33,705 nt of DNA from an uncultured Clostridia bacterium. GTDB taxonomy: Bacteria; Bacillota; Clostridia; TANB77; CAG-508. Under the pieces are notes generated by a model, which was not told the origin of the DNA, ran no database searches, and was given only the letters and a program-made list of their open reading frames with translations. Positions 9,470 through 33,537 of the stretch are shown here, in pieces. Numbering within the stretch: the stretch's first letter is position 1; each line of letters begins with the position of its first letter. The DNA is taken from positions 1 to 33,705 of the forward strand of contig CANQWL010000002.1 of the NCBI GenBank assembly GCA_947627555.1. Direction: 5' to 3'. A program made the position numbers and the translations under genes.

Positions 9470-10582
9470 TTATTTTGTTAATTTTATTCCAAATATTATT
9501 TCTATATTTTTTAAATCTTCTAATTTATAAGTATTATTATATTTTAATTCCAGTACAATGTTGTCATTCCAGTCAGACATTTGTGTTACAACTGGTTCAA
9601 AATTATAATAATATTTGTTATCCTTTTTTTCTTCTATTTTTCCTTCTTCGTTGTACCTATTAATTCTTAAAGAGTAATATTTATTTTTAAGTTTTACTCC
9701 TTCTTCTAATGTTATAGAAATTCCAGTTGAATATATTTTATATGATTTTATCATTAAGTATTGACTTTCATCATTTGTATATGGTATATAGTTTTTTGTT
9801 TTATTATCATATACTAGTAATATTTTAAAGTTTTCTAGTTCCTCATTTTGTACTTTATTTTGTTTTATTACATTATTTTCAAAAACATAATTAATTGATT
9901 CTACTGCATTTTCATATTTATCTACTCTATTTACTAAATCTGGCCTTAATTGTCCTTCTATAATAATATTTTGGTTTATTTCATTAACCTCTAATGTATC
10001 ATTTTGATATTTTTCAATTGTTAAAACTATGTCTTTTACATAAGAACTAGAATTGTCTATTAATTTATAATCGCAATTAAATTTATAATAATTGCCTTCT
10101 GCTTTTTCTAATATTTCATTTTGCCAATTCTCATCTTTATTTGTTTTTTCTATATCTATATTTTTATCAACATCTTTATAAATTACTTTTATTATGTCTT
10201 TTCGTGAATTTGCTATATTTAATATTTGTGTTACATCAAATTTATCAATATACATTTGTTTTGCCATTTTTTGAATATATCCATTAAAGCTATCAATTGT
10301 ATTCTTTTCTTCTTGTTTAGCTTTTTCTTTAGTGTAAAATATTTCTTTTAAAGAATAATTATCTATTATTTCAAGTACATTTTTTGTATATTGGGTTAAT
10401 ACTTGATATTGACACGCATATATAATAATAGTACAAATTATGGAAAACGTTATTGCAATTACTTGATTTCTATTATTTTTATATTTTTTAAGTATAGCAA
10501 TTCCAATAATTATTAGTGGTATAATAATTACTGCTGCTATATATACTAAATAAAACCCAAATGCTCTAAATATACTATTCAT
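9470..10582 (-). CDS. Hypothetical membrane-anchored protein
   Basis: 370 aa. Two N-terminal hydrophobic helices, then an Asn/Lys/Glu-rich soluble region. AAGGAG RBS. No domain recognised. Confidence 0.6.
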   Translation of the reverse strand: MNSIFRAFGFYLVYIAAVIIIPLIIIGIAILKKYKNNRNQVIAITFSIICTIIIYACQYQVLTQYTKNVLEIIDNYSLKEIFYTKEKAKQEEKNTIDSFNGYIQKMAKQMYIDKFDVTQILNIANSRKDIIKVIYKDVDKNIDIEKTNKDENWQNEILEKAEGNYYKFNCDYKLIDNSSSYVKDIVLTIEKYQNDTLEVNEINQNIIIEGQLRPDLVNRVDKYENAVESINYVFENNVIKQNKVQNEELENFKILLVYDNKTKNYIPYTNDESQYLMIKSYKIYSTGISITLEEGVKLKNKYYSLRINRYNEEGKIEEKKDNKYYYNFEPVVTQMSDWNDNIVLELKYNNTYKLEDLKNIEIIFGIKLTK

Positions 10583-10608: not shown

Positions 10609-11862
10609 TTAATCTCCAAAAGCAGTTGCACCTATTACTTTTCCTAATCTTTTATCTATATATATACTTATTCCGTTAAGCATATCTGAGTCATTTCTTG
10701 TAAAACAATATACATCTACTGTTTTGTCTGATGTCCAATCTCTTTCTTCTAATTTTCTTGTAAAGAAATTATTCGGTGTTGCAGTTTGTTCTTTAACTTC
10801 TTGTGTTTTTTCATCATATTCTCCCACAACTCTTTTTGCTTCTTCAAATGCTTTTTCTGCTGTTTTAGTTGCATCTTGGAGTGATATCTTATTTGTTGAT
10901 TTGTTATATTCTTGTAAGAATTCATCAAAATTAGTTACAAATATGTTTGTGTCTAATTGCTCTACTTGTTTATCATATTCTACTTTAAAATTATCATTTG
11001 ATACGTTATTTGAAATTTCTACTAAATCTGTATTATATATACAATCTGTGTTTATAATTTTACTAGCTATAAGTAAATGACATGTATATTGATAATTGAT
11101 ATTTTCTATTTTGTTATAAAAATATTTTATATTTCCTACACTTACTTTAACATCTATTTTAGGTTCTAATGATATGGTCAATATTAAAACATTATCTTTA
11201 AATGTTTCATCTGTTATAGCTTCATCAAAAGCTAAATTAAACATTTCTTTATACAAATTATATTGTTCAATATCTTTAATTTGTACTTGATGAATTTTAT
11301 AATTTATTTCTTTCATTTCTTGTAAATATTTATATTCTACTGTATTTAATACATTTCTAGAAATCATTTCTTTATATTCTAGCATATATGATTTCTTATT
11401 TTCTGATATATTTTCTAATTCTTTTTTTATTTTATTTAAGTTTTTTATATTTTGAGCACATACTTTTCCACCTGTTTCTTCAAACTTTATCATTCCTGTA
11501 TTTTCTACTTTTTGTAATGGAATTAAATAATTTTTACTTGCTGTTTTATAGTCCAATTCTATAAATGATTTTTCTTTTATCTCTTCTATCTCTGAATCAT
11601 TTCTTGCTGATCCATTTGAAATATATTCTTTTATAGATTGTTCTAATAAGTTTTTAATTTTATTATATTCCTCTGTATCTTTTAAAAACTCAAAATATTG
11701 TCCTTCTTCGTTTTTATATACTATTCTATCTGGAGGTATAATATTTTTTTCAAAAACATTTATTTCTTCATTTAAATCAATTTTTTGTTTTAAAAATAAT
11801 CCAATAAATAATGACATTGCAATTAGTATTAATACTATAATTGTTACTATCTTTTTTTTCAT
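10609..11862 (-). CDS. Hypothetical protein with N-terminal signal/anchor
   Basis: 417 aa with a single N-terminal TM helix (IVTIIVLILIAMSLFIGLFL). The C-terminal ~70 aa look vaguely PepSY-like, which is a low-certainty impression. Confidence 0.6.
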   Translation of the reverse strand: MKKKIVTIIVLILIAMSLFIGLFLKQKIDLNEEINVFEKNIIPPDRIVYKNEEGQYFEFLKDTEEYNKIKNLLEQSIKEYISNGSARNDSEIEEIKEKSFIELDYKTASKNYLIPLQKVENTGMIKFEETGGKVCAQNIKNLNKIKKELENISENKKSYMLEYKEMISRNVLNTVEYKYLQEMKEINYKIHQVQIKDIEQYNLYKEMFNLAFDEAITDETFKDNVLILTISLEPKIDVKVSVGNIKYFYNKIENINYQYTCHLLIASKIINTDCIYNTDLVEISNNVSNDNFKVEYDKQVEQLDTNIFVTNFDEFLQEYNKSTNKISLQDATKTAEKAFEEAKRVVGEYDEKTQEVKEQTATPNNFFTRKLEERDWTSDKTVDVYCFTRNDSDMLNGISIYIDKRLGKVIGATAFGD

Positions 11863-16272: not shown

Positions 16273-17315
16273 TTATTTACTATTTCTAAGTTTTATAATG
16301 TTTTGAATCTTTTTTTCATAAAATTCATATATAACTGTCGAAATCAAAAATATAATAATATACGTAATTCCTACATAACAAATATTATAATGACCTGTTA
16401 GATTTATTATTTTTAATAATATAATATATCCTATATTTTGATGAATTAAATACTGAATAAAAGAAGTCTTACCCATATATAATAATAAATGTAGTTTGCA
16501 TGATTTTATTGGATATTTTATAAGAATAATAAATATAACTGTAAAAATAAAAATGCCTATAAAAACTATTATATTACTAGATATTATAATATTAACAATA
16601 CTCATAAAAAATATAATATAATTAGTTAATTGTTTTTTATTTTCTGTTAATATAAATTTTAATGATATTCCTATTAATAAATATCCTAAATAATCACCAC
16701 CAGTTAGTATGTATAAATATTCAAGTCTACTATAATAACTTGACATTATATTTAATAAATTATTAATTATTAAAATAACAATAAAATAATACTTACCTTT
16801 ATTTAGTTTATCTCTAAAGCAGCTTATATATATAGCAGAAATTATATAAAATATAATTAAATATGTTAAATACCAATGGGCCCCATCAACATGTTTTATT
16901 TGTCCGTACTCCACCTAAAAAAAATAAATTACATATATATTCTAGAAAAGAGGGTTGTCTTCCTTCTAATCCAAAAGTAGAAATACATATAAAAATTATT
17001 GTCATGCATAATACATAAGATGGATATACACGTAATATTTTATTTTTTAAGTAATTAAAAATTTTTATATTTTTTTCAGATTTCGGAAGCATAAAATAGC
17101 CACTTATTATAAAGAAGCAAGCTACTGCTGTACCCCCCCCATTTAGATAATGTAACAAAATTAATTGTTTTTATATTAAATAATTCTTCAAATTTGTATG
17201 TATAATGATAAAATATTACCATTAAAATTAAAATTGCTCTCAGCATTTCTATTCCTAAATTCTTTGATTCATAAATACTTTTTACTTTTATATCATTGTT
17301 ATTAAATTTTTTCAT
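16273..17315 (-). pseudogene. Acyltransferase family 3 (OafA/YrhL-type O-acyltransferase), split into three frames
   Basis: ORFs 17076-17315, 16886-17158 and 16273-16914 together read as one ~347-aa AT3 protein: LGIEMLRAILILMVIFYHY / GGGTAVACFFIISGYFM / RVYPSY / VDGAHWYLTYLIIFY, plus a C-terminal multi-TM region. The first break is at a G8 tract (17133-17140). The second break lies in 16886-16916. Confidence 0.8.
17133..17140 (-). repeat. Poly-G(8) tract on the coding strand, at the first frameshift of the acyltransferase
   Basis: The plus strand reads TACCCCCCCCA. Frames were worked out by hand, and G7 fuses ...FVTLSKWGG to TAVACFFIISGYFM. Confidence 0.9.
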
Positions 17316-17506: not shown

Positions 17507-18274
<768 letters not shown>

Positions 18275-20609: not shown

Positions 20610-21776
20610 TTAGTCTCTACTATATAAATCTCTTGTATAAACTTTATCTTTCACTTCAAAAAGTTTATCTTCATATCTATTTGCTAATATTACATCTGAT
20701 TCTTTTTTAAATTTTTCAAAATTATTTATTACATTGCAATCTAAAAACTTATCTTTTTTCAACGTTGGTTCATATATTATTATTTCAACGCCTTCTTTCT
20801 TTAAGTTTTCTATTACTCCTTGTATTGCACTAAATCTAAAATTGTCTGACTCTGATTTCATTGTTAACCTATATACTCCAACTATATCTGGATCTCTTCT
20901 CATTATCATTTCTGCTATATGTTTTTTCCTCGTTCTATTACTTCTTACTATTGCTCTTATTAAGTTTTGTGGTACATTTTCAAAGTTTGCTAACAACTGT
21001 TTTGTATCTTTTGGTAAACAATACCCTCCATATCCAAATGATGGATTATTATAATATGTTCCTATTCTTGGATCTAAACAAATTCCATCTATGATATCTT
21101 TTGAATTTAATCCCTTTATTTCTGCATAAGTATCCAATTCATTAAAATATGATACTCTCAATGCTAAATAAGTATTTGCAAATAATTTTACTGCTTCTGC
21201 TTCTGTTGAATTCATATATTTTACTTCTATTTTTTCTTTTAGTGCTCCTTCTTTTAAAAGATTAGCAAATTCTATTGCCCTTTTACTTTTTTCTCCCATT
21301 ATTATTCTTGAAGGATATAAATTATCATATAATGCTCGTCCTTCTCTTAAAAATTCTGGACTAAACATTATATTGTCTATTCCATATTTTTGTTTTATAC
21401 TCTCTATGTATCCTACTGGAATAGTTGATTTTACTACTATTGTTGTATCCATTTCCATTGATATTACTTTTTCTATTATATCTTCTACACTTGATGTGTC
21501 AAAATAATTTCTTTCATCATCATAATTTGTTGGTGTTGATATAACTATATACTTTGCTCCTTCAAAAGCGTCTTTATAGTCTAATGTTGCTTTTAAATCT
21601 AATGTTTTATTTGCAAAAAAATCTTCTATTTCTTTATCTCTTATTGGAGAAATTCTTTTGTTTATCATTTCAACTTTTTCTGGTATTATATCTAATGCAA
21701 CAACCTCATTTTTTTGACTTAATAATGTTGCTATTGATAATCCTACATATCCTGTTCCTGCTACTGCTATTTTCAT
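20610..21776 (-). CDS. ugd: UDP-glucose 6-dehydrogenase
   Basis: [14 protein letters not shown]ossmann N-terminus and catalytic [14 protein letters not shown]. By memory it resembles streptococcal HasB along its whole length. I place the start at the ATG at 21776 rather than the track's 21809. Confidence 0.9.
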
Positions 21777-21815
21777 TTTTATTATTTCCCTTCGAATTTT
21801 ATTTTTCATGTAAAA

Positions 21816-27763: not shown

Positions 27764-28659
27764 TTATATATTAAACAAATTACCCAACTCAAAATCATAT
27801 TCGTCTGGTTCAAACATAAAATATCCACTTGCATTAAAGAATGTCATTTCTCCAAAAAATATATTACCATCTATATTGTAAAAATCCACTCTTACATGAG
27901 GAAAACCCTTTGATAATTTCTTTGCCATTTCAACCATCTTTTCAAAGTTTTTTGGTTTTTCCGGTTGCCTCAAAATTGGTTTAAAATCTTTACGATGAAC
28001 ATCTAATAATTTAAAATTCATATCAAAAAATCCTAACTCACCTAAATCATGATTTTCTCTATAATTTTGCATCATATATAAACATATTGGTTTTCCATCA
28101 AAACAAAAAAACTTATAATCTGGTAAATCCCCATCTAAGCCGTCTAATTTTTTTTCTACTATTATACGATGCTTTTTATTATCATAACACCATTCTCTAC
28201 CAACATTCTTTTTGTTTATAGGTTCATTTACCCATTTTTTCATTTGAGATATTAATTCGTTTTTATTACATGAATTTTTATCATTTATTAGCAGAACAGA
28301 GGTTCCACCCCCCCTAATGTATCTTTTAATACAAATTTATTTGGGAGTTTATCAAAATCAATTTCTAATGGATTGTCATATACTCCATAACATTTATTTA
28401 ATATATTTTCTAAACCACATTGTTTTACATATTTTCTAACTTCATATTTATCTACACATTTTTCCATAAGTGGATTTCTATATTTCAACTTATATAATTG
28501 TAATTTTTCAGTATATCTTTTGGGATTATTTAAATTTAATTTTCGTCCTGTTTTTATCCTATATTGTAAAGATAACATTTGTTTATCAGGAATAAAATTT
28601 AATAATCTTAAAATTCTTATACGTACATTTTTAGATTTTATAATTTTCTTATAATCCAT
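27764..28659 (-). pseudogene. TupA-like ATP-grasp protein, split in two by a frameshift at a G7 tract
   Basis: ORFs 28288-28659 (NLNNPKRYTEKLQLYKL...KFVLKDTLGG) and 27764-28243 (DYKFFCFDGKP...VRVDFYNIDGNIFFGEMTF) are the N- and C-terminal halves of one ~298-aa protein. Adding one G at 28308-28314 gives an open frame through ...TLGGGGTSVLLINDKNSCNKNELISQMKKWVNEP... Confidence 0.8.
28308..28314 (-). repeat. Poly-G(7) tract on the coding strand, at the ATP-grasp frameshift
   Basis: The plus strand reads CCACCCCCCCTAA. Codon-by-codon check: there are 71 nt from the first G to the downstream ATG, so +1 G restores the frame and no stop codon intervenes. Confidence 0.9.
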
Positions 28660-28671
28660 ATTTACCTCTTT

Positions 28672-29766
28672 TTAATTTATTTTTTCTAAATATTTTTCTA
28701 TTACTATATTTCTATTAAATTGTTTAATCATTTTTTCTCTTCCTGCTAATCCCATATTCTTTTTTTGTTCGTATGATAATTTAATAAATTTTTCTATTTT
28801 ATTAACTAAATCTTTTACATTTCCCTTTTCATAAATATATCCTGTATATCCGTTATTTACTGTTTCAAAACATCCAGGATTATTTGTAGTAATAATTGGT
28901 CGTCCAGAAGATGCATTTTCTAATAACACATTCGACATACCTTCTCCATATTTAGAAGGATGAATAATTGCATGAGACCTTTTGATATAAGGAATAACAT
29001 CCTTTTGCTCTCCTCTATAAATAATTATTCCATCATCTTCTAATTTTTTAAAATCATCTATATAATGTTTTTCCGTTGGTTCAATAAAACCAATTATATT
29101 AAATTCGGTATTTTTATATTTCTTTTTAATTTCTTTCGCTGCTTCTATATAATCATCTATACCCTTTTCTTTTAAAACTCTGCCAAAATAATTAAATACA
29201 ATTTTTTCGTCATTTGGAGGATATTCTTGTAGCGAGAATTTATTTATATTAACTCCAGATCCTGGAATTAGTTGATAATCACCAGATATTATTTTCTTAT
29301 TTAATATTAGTTTCATGTTAGTTTCATTTTGAAAAAATACACATTTAGATTCTTTTAATGCAAGTTTTAATAATTTATATATTAAATTTTGTAAGAGTTT
29401 CCCTTTATTTAATATACTGCCTAAACCTGTAATATTGTTTATATATTCTACTTTACAAAATCTACATGCGATACTTGCATAAACATTCGGTTTTATTGTA
29501 TATGCTAAAACAATATCTGGTTTATATTTATTTAAAAATTTAATATAATGTAACAATAGTTTAAAATCTTTTAGTGGATTTATTCCCCTTCTATCTATAA
29601 TAGGATTATCTAATTTGAATTTTATATTATTCATTAAATCTAATTTTTCACCATATGGACAAGAAATTATTATTTCATTTTTTTCTAAATATAATTTTTC
29701 AATTAATTCTTTTCTAAAACAATATATATCATCAGCATGATTTGCTACTATTGCTATTTTTTTCAA
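28672..29766 (-). CDS. Glycosyltransferase family 4
   Basis: 364 aa with the GT-B/GT4 E-x7-E region PSKYGEGMSNVLLENASSGRPIITTN. Confidence 0.85.
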   Translation of the reverse strand: MKKIAIVANHADDIYCFRKELIEKLYLEKNEIIISCPYGEKLDLMNNIKFKLDNPIIDRRGINPLKDFKLLLHYIKFLNKYKPDIVLAYTIKPNVYASIACRFCKVEYINNITGLGSILNKGKLLQNLIYKLLKLALKESKCVFFQNETNMKLILNKKIISGDYQLIPGSGVNINKFSLQEYPPNDEKIVFNYFGRVLKEKGIDDYIEAAKEIKKKYKNTEFNIIGFIEPTEKHYIDDFKKLEDDGIIIYRGEQKDVIPYIKRSHAIIHPSKYGEGMSNVLLENASSGRPIITTNNPGCFETVNNGYTGYIYEKGNVKDLVNKIEKFIKLSYEQKKNMGLAGREKMIKQFNRNIVIEKYLEKIN

Positions 29767-31998: not shown

Positions 31999-33252
31999 TT
32001 ATATTTTTTTGTCATATTTCCTTAAGCAACCCAATGCTATGTTCATTGCACAATTAAAGAAATAATCTGCTTGATGTCCATTTTTACAAATTGCCTTATC
32101 TTCTATTATTTTTTTATTTGTTTGTTTCCTTATTTTTCTTTCCATTACTTCTCCACATTTGTAGCATTTATCTGTTTTTTCTGTCATATCAACAAATGTT
32201 ACAAGAATATTTTCTTTAAATGCTTTATATCTAACGTAGTTTGTGATTCTATCTCTTAATGTTGCTGGATTAAATCTTTTTGAATATTTTAAAAAGATTT
32301 TGTCACTTCTAACATTTGATAGTGCTATTATTGTAACTTCATTTTCTACGCAAAAATCTACAATATTTCTGCTTATTACATGTGAAAAATGTGTGGTATA
32401 TTTTGATATCTTTTTCCAGTACTTTTTATTTGAACCTTTAACTTTATTTGAATTTTTAGCTATATGAGTATTTCTTTGTATCTTCCTCATAGCTTGGCTT
32501 GTTAAATATTTATATTCGTCTCCTCCTGAAATAAATAAAGTTTTCACAAATTTACCGTTAATATCTACTACTACACATGTTGCAATGTTGTTCTTTCCGG
32601 AAAATGCTACTCCACATACTCGTGTGTTCTTATCTTCCATTCTTTCTTTTATTGTTGTAAGATTTTCTACTGTACACCTTACTGGAATGTCTACTAATAC
32701 AAATTTCTTTTCTACCTTGATTTTTGGAGATAAGAGCTCTGCATTTTCAGGTATGTCCCATTTACTAAACTTTGCTTCATACCATTTCCAGTCTGTTCCG
32801 TTATAGAGTTTGAATTTAATTTTTCTATCTTCTAAGTATTGATACATTTCTTGATAATATGTTGTAGGAAAATTAAATTCTTTTGCTATACTTGGAAGTT
32901 TATTGTTTTTACTGCTGTCAACACTTTTTTCTAAGTTTGTAAAATATGCTTTTGCTTGTCCTATCGCTTGCATCATAGCTGACCTTCTGAACCTAGAGGG
33001 TACATCACATTTGAAATATTCTTTTGGAATTTCTCCGTATTTATTTATACATGTTATATTTTCTAGCTTTGTTCTACAGTTTCTAGAAGATTCTTTGAGA
33101 AATTCTTGATATTTAAATAGTAAATTATAATATTTTAGTACAAGTTCATTAAATTTTTGATTCGTTAATTTAAAGTATTCTAAATATTCTGTGTATAGCC
33201 TTCTTTTATAAATTACTGTGTAATACCCTTGTTTTTGCTCTTCTTCAGCCAT
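31999..33252 (-). CDS. TnpB-like (IS605 OrfB family) protein with substituted RuvC-I and RuvC-II catalytic positions
   Basis: 417 aa. TnpB hallmarks are HVISRNIVDFCVENEVTIIALSNV, YVRYKAFKENILVTFVDMTEKTDKCYKCG...CKNGHQADYFFNCAMNIA (zinc ribbon plus RuvC-III). The expected G-[IV]-D-x-G is GVAFSG and the expected I-x-x-E-D-L is IIALSNV. GGAGG RBS 6 nt upstream. There is no tnpA nearby. Confidence 0.8.
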   Translation of the reverse strand: MAEEEQKQGYYTVIYKRRLYTEYLEYFKLTNQKFNELVLKYYNLLFKYQEFLKESSRNCRTKLENITCINKYGEIPKEYFKCDVPSRFRRSAMMQAIGQAKAYFTNLEKSVDSSKNNKLPSIAKEFNFPTTYYQEMYQYLEDRKIKFKLYNGTDWKWYEAKFSKWDIPENAELLSPKIKVEKKFVLVDIPVRCTVENLTTIKERMEDKNTRVCGVAFSGKNNIATCVVVDINGKFVKTLFISGGDEYKYLTSQAMRKIQRNTHIAKNSNKVKGSNKKYWKKISKYTTHFSHVISRNIVDFCVENEVTIIALSNVRSDKIFLKYSKRFNPATLRDRITNYVRYKAFKENILVTFVDMTEKTDKCYKCGEVMERKIRKQTNKKIIEDKAICKNGHQADYFFNCAMNIALGCLRKYDKKI

Positions 33253-33352: not shown

Positions 33353-33537
33353 GTATTACATATTTAGTTACTTATTTTTATAATTATAACAATATATTAA
33401 AATATTTTGTTTTAATTCAATGTTATGTTAGGTTTTATATGATATTTTTTTTGTTCTCATATCCTCTGTACCCCCCTTATATATCTGTTACTTCTATAAA
33501 TTTTTTAGAAGATAATCTAAAAAAATGTCAATAAGTA

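Follow-up and report, generated by a model that had tools for sequence, protein, structure and literature searches.

A slippage-type frameshift in a poly-G tract at the catalytic-loop codons of a TupA-like ATP-grasp gene from an uncultured Clostridia bacterium

In Campylobacter jejuni, phase variation relies chiefly on poly-G tracts in capsule-decoration genes; these tracts undergo insertions and deletions at 1e-4 to 1.6e-3 per division (PMC8355987). In Bifidobacterium breve, a Gram-positive gut commensal, pilus genes are likewise switched by a G tract inside the gene (PMC9187656). For enzymes of the TupA-like family, amidation of the uronic-acid carboxylate of a surface polysaccharide is the predicted activity, which has been shown in one case (PMC13419641, PMC11800379). 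The C-terminal domain of Cj1438 from C. jejuni NCTC 11168 is a TupA-like amidoligase that forms an amide on the C6 carboxylate of glucuronic acid, as stated in PMC11800379, which cites Riegert et al. 2022. Here we analyze a TupA-like ATP-grasp gene that is divided by a run of seven G (G7) within a polysaccharide locus of an uncultured Clostridia bacterium. The stretch of DNA analyzed, referred to as the window, is the complete 33,705-bp contig CANQWL010000002.1 of assembly GCA_947627555.1 with a G+C content of 25.1%; it carries SpoIIP, LexA and PGI and stems from a spore-forming Firmicute. We find that the interruption is a genuine frameshift in a slip-prone tract and discuss it as a candidate for a reversible switch caught in its OFF state.

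The arrangement in the window resembles that of the capsule and lipooligosaccharide genes of C. jejuni (cj1420-cj1422, cj1426, cj1429, cj1437; PMC8355987) in that an intragenic G run lies in a non-essential decoration gene of a polysaccharide locus, that the gain or loss of one G toggles the reading frame and that the locus holds several tracts. The predicted decoration has its counterpart as well, since the decorated sugar of C. jejuni HS:2 is likewise amidated glucuronic acid. The window differs from C. jejuni in (i) the host, a spore-forming member of the Clostridia with 25% G+C that presumably possesses mismatch repair, whereas C. jejuni does not, (ii) the tract length, which is 7 or 8 as compared to typically 8-11, and (iii) the position of the tract on a catalytic Gly-rich loop, where it could stem from synonymous drift. 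With the C-terminal domain of Cj1438, the window protein has the PF14305 family or fold in common, and both loci also encode a UDP-glucose dehydrogenase; Cj1438, however, is a fusion of three domains that includes a GT2 glycosyltransferase (GT), unlike the window protein, which is a stand-alone protein of 298 aa encoded beside a GT4/GT1 gene. The sortase-dependent pilus switch of B. breve UCC2003, which gives rise to ON and OFF sub-populations (PMC9187656), likewise places a G run in a gene for a surface structure. In that case, however, a pilus gene of a high-G+C actinobacterium is concerned and the switch was demonstrated by deep sequencing, whereas the evidence for the window is comparative.

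The G7 tract and the gene it divides

The tract is located at 28308..28314 on the minus strand (C7 on the plus strand) and forms part of the codons for the Gly-rich loop KDTLGGGG. It coincides exactly with the frameshift, as a preliminary description of this DNA had proposed. The coding strand at the break reads ACA TTA GGG GGG GTG GAA CCT CTG TTC TGC TAA and thereby ends an N-terminal open reading frame (ORF) of 123 aa (28288..28659, minus strand) with the tail ...KDTLGGVEPLFC*, which lacks the catalytic part of the ATP-grasp fold. The C-terminal fragment, an ORF of 159 aa in another frame (27764..28243, minus strand), starts from an internal ATG (MKKWVNEP...) and lacks both the Lys and the Gly-rich loop; inspection by eye revealed no Shine-Dalgarno-like sequence in front of it.

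Insertion of a single G (G8) joins both fragments to an ORF of 298 aa (27764..28659, minus strand) that contains ...KDTLGGGGTSVLLINDKNSCNKNELISQMKKWVNEP..., again in agreement with the preliminary description. The assignment made there to the family of TupA-like ATP-grasp proteins, with a predicted amidoligase function in a polysaccharide locus, is borne out by a full-length match of the G8-repaired ORF to Pfam PF14305 (profile positions 1-240 of 241, E 2.8e-41, 142 bits at a cut-off of 25). The repaired protein has 7485 homologues, the best of which is 71% identical over 99% of the length, and can be aligned end to end with homologues of ~300 aa. A sequence-profile search returned no solved structure for the TupA-like family, and NCBIfam contains no model for this protein. 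By analogy to the characterized family member, the enzyme would form an amide bond on a carboxylate of the polysaccharide and is thus predicted to decorate a uronic acid of the polymer.

The loop consensus in the family is K-D-T-L-G-G/S-G-G; the tract coincides with this loop, and G7 as sequenced cuts it short. We take this element to be the Lys and Gly-rich ATP loop of ATP-grasp enzymes, comparable to KASGGGGGRG of biotin carboxylase. Reading the gene with G8 brings back K112, D113, L115, G116, G118 and G119, all of which are invariant in 26 family members. All 85 columns that are invariant in the 26 sequences are maintained in the repaired protein, and of the 86 columns in which the other 25 sequences do not vary it deviates in a single one, by a conservative exchange of F to Y, as compared to 0-4 deviations for intact homologues. 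Judged by this alignment, the TupA-like gene itself shows no further decay beyond the frameshift in the tract.

The predicted products have lengths of 298 aa for G8 and of 125, 123 and 126 aa for G6, G7 and G9, respectively. A change in repeat number alone toggles between an intact and a truncated TupA-like product, with no second lesion involved, as is characteristic of phase-variable genes. The tract is a pure homopolymer inside the reading frame (G7, or G8 when ON) and represents the slip-prone type of repeat that defines simple sequence repeat contingency genes. G5 also restores the frame, but it deletes one residue of the conserved G-G/S-G-G loop, and for this reason we consider G8 to be the natural ON length.

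The frameshift is real and not a one-off assembly error. The same 123-aa product, with the identical frameshifted tail, is encoded on four further contigs (L082-L085: ERZ27249487, the Logan assembly of ERR10663716, ERZ27248999 and ERZ27249013, the three ERZ assemblies being from ENA). All four contain G7 and are 99.9-100% identical to the window with 0-2 differences; their coverage is 2-3x and they probably belong to one study. A second tract of the locus, G8 at 17133-17140, is reproduced in a further ERZ27249013 contig (L086). Exact-product look-ups of the neighboring genes for close relatives of the locus gave only one contig of 930 nt. The locus proteins form single-member 90% clusters with no relatives of at least 90% identity in the collection, and the best homologue in a GTDB scan is 64% identical.

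The preliminary description had further regarded a G7 run as very improbable by chance in DNA this rich in AT. Indeed, the window contains two G/C runs of at least 7 (and one run of 6), where 0.06 (independent bases) to 0.16 (first-order Markov) are expected, and both fall within decoration genes of the polysaccharide locus. In the intact genes of the window, GGG accounts for 23 of 494 Gly codons (4.7%), and none of the 32 Gly-Gly codon pairs is GGG-GGG. A/T runs of at least 7 are present ~70 times, and none of them breaks a gene.

Homologous tracts in Ruthenibacterium lactatiformans and other genomes

We compared the window with 80 homologous GTDB loci (L002-L081; 725 kb), nearly all of which derive from metagenome-assembled genomes (MAGs), and aligned 82 homologous genes at the motif. 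All homologous genes in these loci are in frame across the motif. The preliminary description had suggested looking for a G tract at the same codon position in orthologues; two of the 82 genes, those of R. lactatiformans 585-1 (L008) and a Fibrobacterales MAG, encode the motif with G8. A possible family-wide enrichment of G8 at the Gly4 motif was not counted as a sign of selection, the rate being near the estimate from codon usage.

In R. lactatiformans 585-1, the KDTLGGGG loop is encoded in frame by CTC GGG GGG GGT GGA and shares the codons GGG GGG GGT GGA with the window. The corresponding protein WP_050005121.1 (303 aa, 'ATP-grasp fold amidoligase family protein') is 56% identical to the window protein, and the order Bac_transf, 364-aa glycosyltransferase, TupA-like gene is common to both. 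For this gene, the products expected from G7 and G9 alleles were deduced and searched for by exact sequence. The G8 product occurs on 88 contigs; 14 contigs carry the G7 product (123 aa, the same length as the truncated product of the window) and 22 the G9 product (127 aa). For 8 G7 and 9 G9 contigs, originating from many different studies, we inspected the DNA, and the run lengths matched the prediction. Over flanks of ~2 kb, all nine G9 contigs and six of the eight G7 contigs are free of mismatches to the G8 reference; the remaining two G7 contigs are divergent on one side. Two more G8 copies were obtained from JGI metagenomes. Both lengthening and shortening of the R. lactatiformans tract occur faster than substitutions accumulate in its flanks, which is the behavior of a phase-variable repeat. 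Because alleles with G7, G8 and G9 share identical flanks in this species, poly-G tracts of this kind evidently do slip in Clostridia. In contrast to R. lactatiformans, where the reference is G8 (ON) and G7, G8 and G9 all occur in nature, the window lineage is known with G7 only. The nearest homologue of the window protein (71% identity) encodes the motif as GGG GGA GGC GGA, and given these codons the tracts of the window and of R. lactatiformans may have independent origins.

Tracts at other positions of TupA-like genes were observed as well. A different poly-G in the TupA-like gene of a Muribaculaceae locus (L071) is represented by G8 on 10, G9 on 70 and G10 on 45 contigs. In Prevotellaceae and Muribaculaceae MAGs and in L067 (labelled 'uncultured Staphylococcus sp.'), a poly-G comes after the TupA-like gene and precedes a second copy of the domain's C-terminal half (L058:5918, L067:5918, L071:5919), and the tract length in these three loci sets whether a protein of ~310 aa or of ~448 aa is made. 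In several TupA-like genes of Clostridia, a poly-G occupies the last codons (L063:4925, L063:5899, L024:5914, L026:4928, L051:5906).

The polysaccharide locus and its second tract

The TupA-like gene lies inside a co-directional polysaccharide locus on the minus strand (16.2-31.7 kb, ~15.5 kb) and thus, as is typical for contingency genes, belongs to the genes for a surface structure. In order, the locus comprises (i) a DegT-type aminotransferase, a Bac_transf priming transferase, a GT4/GT1 glycosyltransferase and the TupA-like gene, (ii) a CDP-alcohol phosphatidyltransferase, a DUF6337 membrane protein, a GT2 glycosyltransferase, an IspD-like cytidylyltransferase and two epimerase/dehydratases, and (iii) a UDP-glucose 6-dehydrogenase-like gene, a Wzx-type flippase, LicD, a second IspD-like gene and an Acyl_transf_3 gene. 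The glycosyltransferase directly upstream of the TupA-like gene (28672..29766, minus strand) has 364 aa and belongs to the GT4/GT1 family. The UDP-glucose 6-dehydrogenase-like gene (20610..21809, minus strand) is part of the same operon-like array; it matches NF011631 with E 1.9e-171, below the equivalog cut-off, and TIGR03026 above the cut-off, and is the likely source of the uronic acid carboxylate for the amidation predicted for the TupA-like enzyme.

A TnpB/Cas12f-like gene (31999-33252, minus strand), recognized by a match to OrfB_IS605 with NF040570 below its cut-off, borders the locus. PGI of the window is 98% identical to that of GCA_947589135.1 (L095) and 86-91% identical to many metagenome proteins. 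In GCA_947589135.1, the polysaccharide locus is missing at the corresponding position, and a phosphoglucomutase gene is found where the window has the acyltransferase gene and the locus, so that the locus may represent a strain-specific island. The same comparison shows a two-gene insertion in the window: the genes for LexA and the acyl-ACP thioesterase, neighbors in L095, are here separated by two ORFs (370 and 417 aa, at 9470-10582 and 10609-11862, minus strand) that have no Pfam or PADLOC match.

The second poly-G of the window, G8 followed by TACAG (17133..17140, minus strand; identical in L086), lies out of frame inside the Acyl_transf_3 gene. This gene is an O-acyltransferase pseudogene (16273..17315, minus strand) in three frame fragments (17076..17315, 16886..17158 and 16273..16914), the first two of which would be fused by G7 or G10. 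A second frameshift, an excess of 1 nt at 16884..16904 (minus strand), lies outside long homopolymers and is also present in L086; dropping one A of an A4 at this site gives a gap-free alignment to homologues. When repaired at both sites, the protein aligns without gaps to 11 homologues, yet it deviates in 7 otherwise invariant columns as compared to 0-6 (median 2) for intact sequences. On account of the second frameshift, this tract does not share the single-lesion reversibility of the TupA-like gene. Exact look-up of the acyltransferase products with G7, G9 and G10 in the protein collection gave no match.

Two further repeats were noted in the window. A third G run, C6 on the plus strand at 33471-33476 (G6 then TACAG on the minus strand), is intergenic and lies upstream of the TnpB-like gene; the bases that follow, TACAG, are common to this run and the acyltransferase tract. 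A perfect (TG)16.5 at 17517-17549, corresponding to (CA)16 on the coding strand, lies in the last codons of the IspD-like gene at 17507..18274, which is located just upstream of the acyltransferase gene and ends in ...THTHTHTHTHTQYI*. Changes in the number of CA units would affect only the C-terminal tail of the IspD-like protein (253-284 aa). Products with plus or minus 1-3 CA units were absent from the protein collection by exact look-up, and contig L086, which derives from another sample, stops ~20 nt short of the repeat.

Candidate switch, competing explanations and wider context

In the mechanism we propose, the ATP-binding KDTLGGGG loop of the working gene would be encoded by GGG GGG GGT GGA, that is, by a G8 run. 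Slipped-strand mispairing at replication would remove one G; the resulting G7 would lead to a stop 8 codons downstream, neither fragment would retain a complete active site, and the gene would be OFF. The OFF state would be null for the enzyme because the 123-aa product lacks the catalytic domain and the downstream ORF lacks the Lys and the Gly loop as well as an evident ribosome-binding site. The G7/G8 run would keep slipping, and reversion from G7 to G8 in a fraction of cells would restore the enzyme. The outcome would be stochastic, heritable and reversible ON/OFF switching of one decoration, amidated versus free carboxylate, altering charge and antigenicity of the polymer while its synthesis continues. 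By analogy to the C-terminal domain of Cj1438 and to the family description, as given in PMC11800379 and PMC13419641, the uronic-acid carboxylate would be amidated in the ON state and would keep its free negative charge in the OFF state. A uronic acid in the repeat unit is suggested by the UDP-glucose dehydrogenase-like gene of the locus. The OFF state may also exert polar effects on downstream genes.

The frameshift in the window is real and due to slippage at a hypermutable G tract, which lies on the TupA-like catalytic loop; reversion in the window lineage, the substrate, the phenotype and a selection that exploits switching are inferred. These sequence data are best read as a reversible phase-variation switch caught OFF, a reading to which we assign about an even chance and which is not established in this organism. 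The preliminary description had arrived at the same reading: the anatomy of the gene and slippage in R. lactatiformans speak for it, and switching itself was not seen in the window lineage. A number of observations weigh against the switch or speak for its main rival, a plain and effectively fixed pseudogene, in which the Gly4 motif came to be encoded with a G8 run through synonymous drift, one slip led to G7 and the decoration was dispensable. Reversion may then happen chemically, without a biological role. Length variation was absent from the window lineage with G7 in 5 of 5 assemblies, a result of low power given that the contigs have 2-3x coverage and probably belong to one study. The predicted TupA products for G5, G6, G8 and G9 were absent, by exact look-up, from a collection of ~15 billion proteins, so that the ON product was nowhere found, and a pattern scan of JGI metagenomes for the window tract allowing G5-G11 gave 0 matches. 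The tract needs no selection to arise, being on a Gly4 motif: a few synonymous changes would turn the codons of the nearest homologue into G8, and the frequency of G8 at the motif, 2 of 82 homologous genes, is near a rough codon-usage estimate that assumes GGG to make up ~12% of Gly codons. The nearby acyltransferase gene, with its out-of-frame G8, is decaying; its second frameshift and its excess of deviations at conserved sites imply that slippage in this locus can start decay rather than form part of a maintained switch. One of the supporting contigs (L082, ERZ27249487) possibly has R in place of Q at residue 232 (Q232R; window position 27966), a nearly invariant position in the C-terminal half of the TupA-like protein. 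The strain-specific locus bordering the TnpB-like gene may be a recently acquired, eroding island. In addition, mismatch repair is normal in Clostridia and lowers slippage rates. We consider the pseudogene a quite plausible explanation, if one of less than even probability. Against it stand the absence of a second lesion and of excess conserved-site substitutions in the TupA-like gene and the still pure run, as well as the OFF alleles of R. lactatiformans on flanks identical to those of ON alleles, where G7 and G9 are both common and the pattern looks like ongoing two-way switching. By the rule laid down in the preliminary description, uniform G7 together with additional decay would indicate a plain pseudogene; uniform G7 was observed, further decay of the TupA-like gene was not.

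A homopolymer error in sequencing or assembly, with G8 as the true sequence and an intact gene, was the alternative named in the preliminary description. Homopolymers are error-prone, and the supporting contigs of 2-3x coverage seemingly belong to one project and possibly to one chemistry. Contig L082 also has a 1-nt deletion at window position 29300 that would split the glycosyltransferase gene and is dubious at 2.9x coverage; this deletion and Q232R are either real variants of a sub-population or errors at that coverage. A random error is nevertheless unlikely because G7 is concordant in five assemblies and the G8 of the second tract in two, and because the A/T runs of at least 7 in the window break no ORF. 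Illumina-type consensus errors at runs of 7-8 nt are rare and would not recur identically. Taken together, we regard an error as very improbable. We give slightly less credit still to recoding, in which G7 would be the normal state and full-length protein would be made at a low, set level either through a -1 slip of tRNA-Gly in the ribosome on G GGG GGG or through slippage during transcription of the run. If the tRNA slipped by -1 in the P-site at the second GGG, its pairing would again be perfect and the product would contain exactly ...LGGGGTS..., the consensus loop of the family. The canonical X XXY YYZ heptamer is, however, absent from the zero frame, no significant RNA structure is found downstream (minimum free energy z-score -1.1; 29 of 200 shuffled sequences fold as well), and the out-of-frame arrangement is not conserved, the homologues across the 80 loci all being in frame at the motif.

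The phase-variation switch can also be viewed in the wider context of the homologous loci. On the coding strands of these loci, runs of at least 8 comprise 36 G runs, for which 7.9 are expected from a Markov model, versus 2 C runs. In 25 of the 36 G runs the next base is T, in 26 an A is at the following position and in 18 a C precedes the run; after runs of G3-G6, TA follows in only 7-10%. The long G runs are located in genes for PF14397 ATP-grasp, GT2, Acyl_transf_3, SDR and hexapeptide-transferase proteins and are found in both in-frame and out-of-frame states; in L044 and L075, a full-length match to PF14397 is obtained only with a -1 correction. Examples are L031:2145 (G12), L031:6045 (G15), L029:734 (G11), L051:5906 (G11), L062:6636/9150/10746 (G10) and five tracts in L063. 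These observations raise the possibility, which we regard as rather doubtful at present, that the window tract is an instance of broad and largely undescribed contingency switching by coding-strand poly-G in genes with which gut anaerobes of different phyla decorate their polysaccharides. Such switching would extend over Lachnospiraceae, Oscillospiraceae, Muribaculaceae, Prevotellaceae, Fibrobacterales and Thermoguttaceae, and the catalytic Gly4 loop of TupA-like proteins would have been recruited independently in at least three lineages, namely that of the window, Ruthenibacterium and the Fibrobacterales MAG. The C-G(8-15)-TA context of most long tracts would suggest that they share a constraint or a mechanism, and G7, G8 and (CA)16 would constitute a small 'phasome' in the window locus.

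Where gut commensals vary their surface glycans by phase variation, invertible promoters are mostly held responsible, and homopolymer switches are textbook knowledge for a few pathogens only. For gut Clostridia, we found no literature on phase variation by homopolymers in polysaccharide loci, which is not proof of its absence. R. lactatiformans is cultivable, and switching can thus be tested directly. In MAGs, annotation routinely lists genes of this kind as pseudogenes or as split ORFs, so that functional decoration genes are undercounted. If the tracts switch, gut Clostridia and Bacteroidales would vary single sugar decorations, charge-altering amides and O-acyl groups, by slippage, and recognition by phages and antibodies would be affected.

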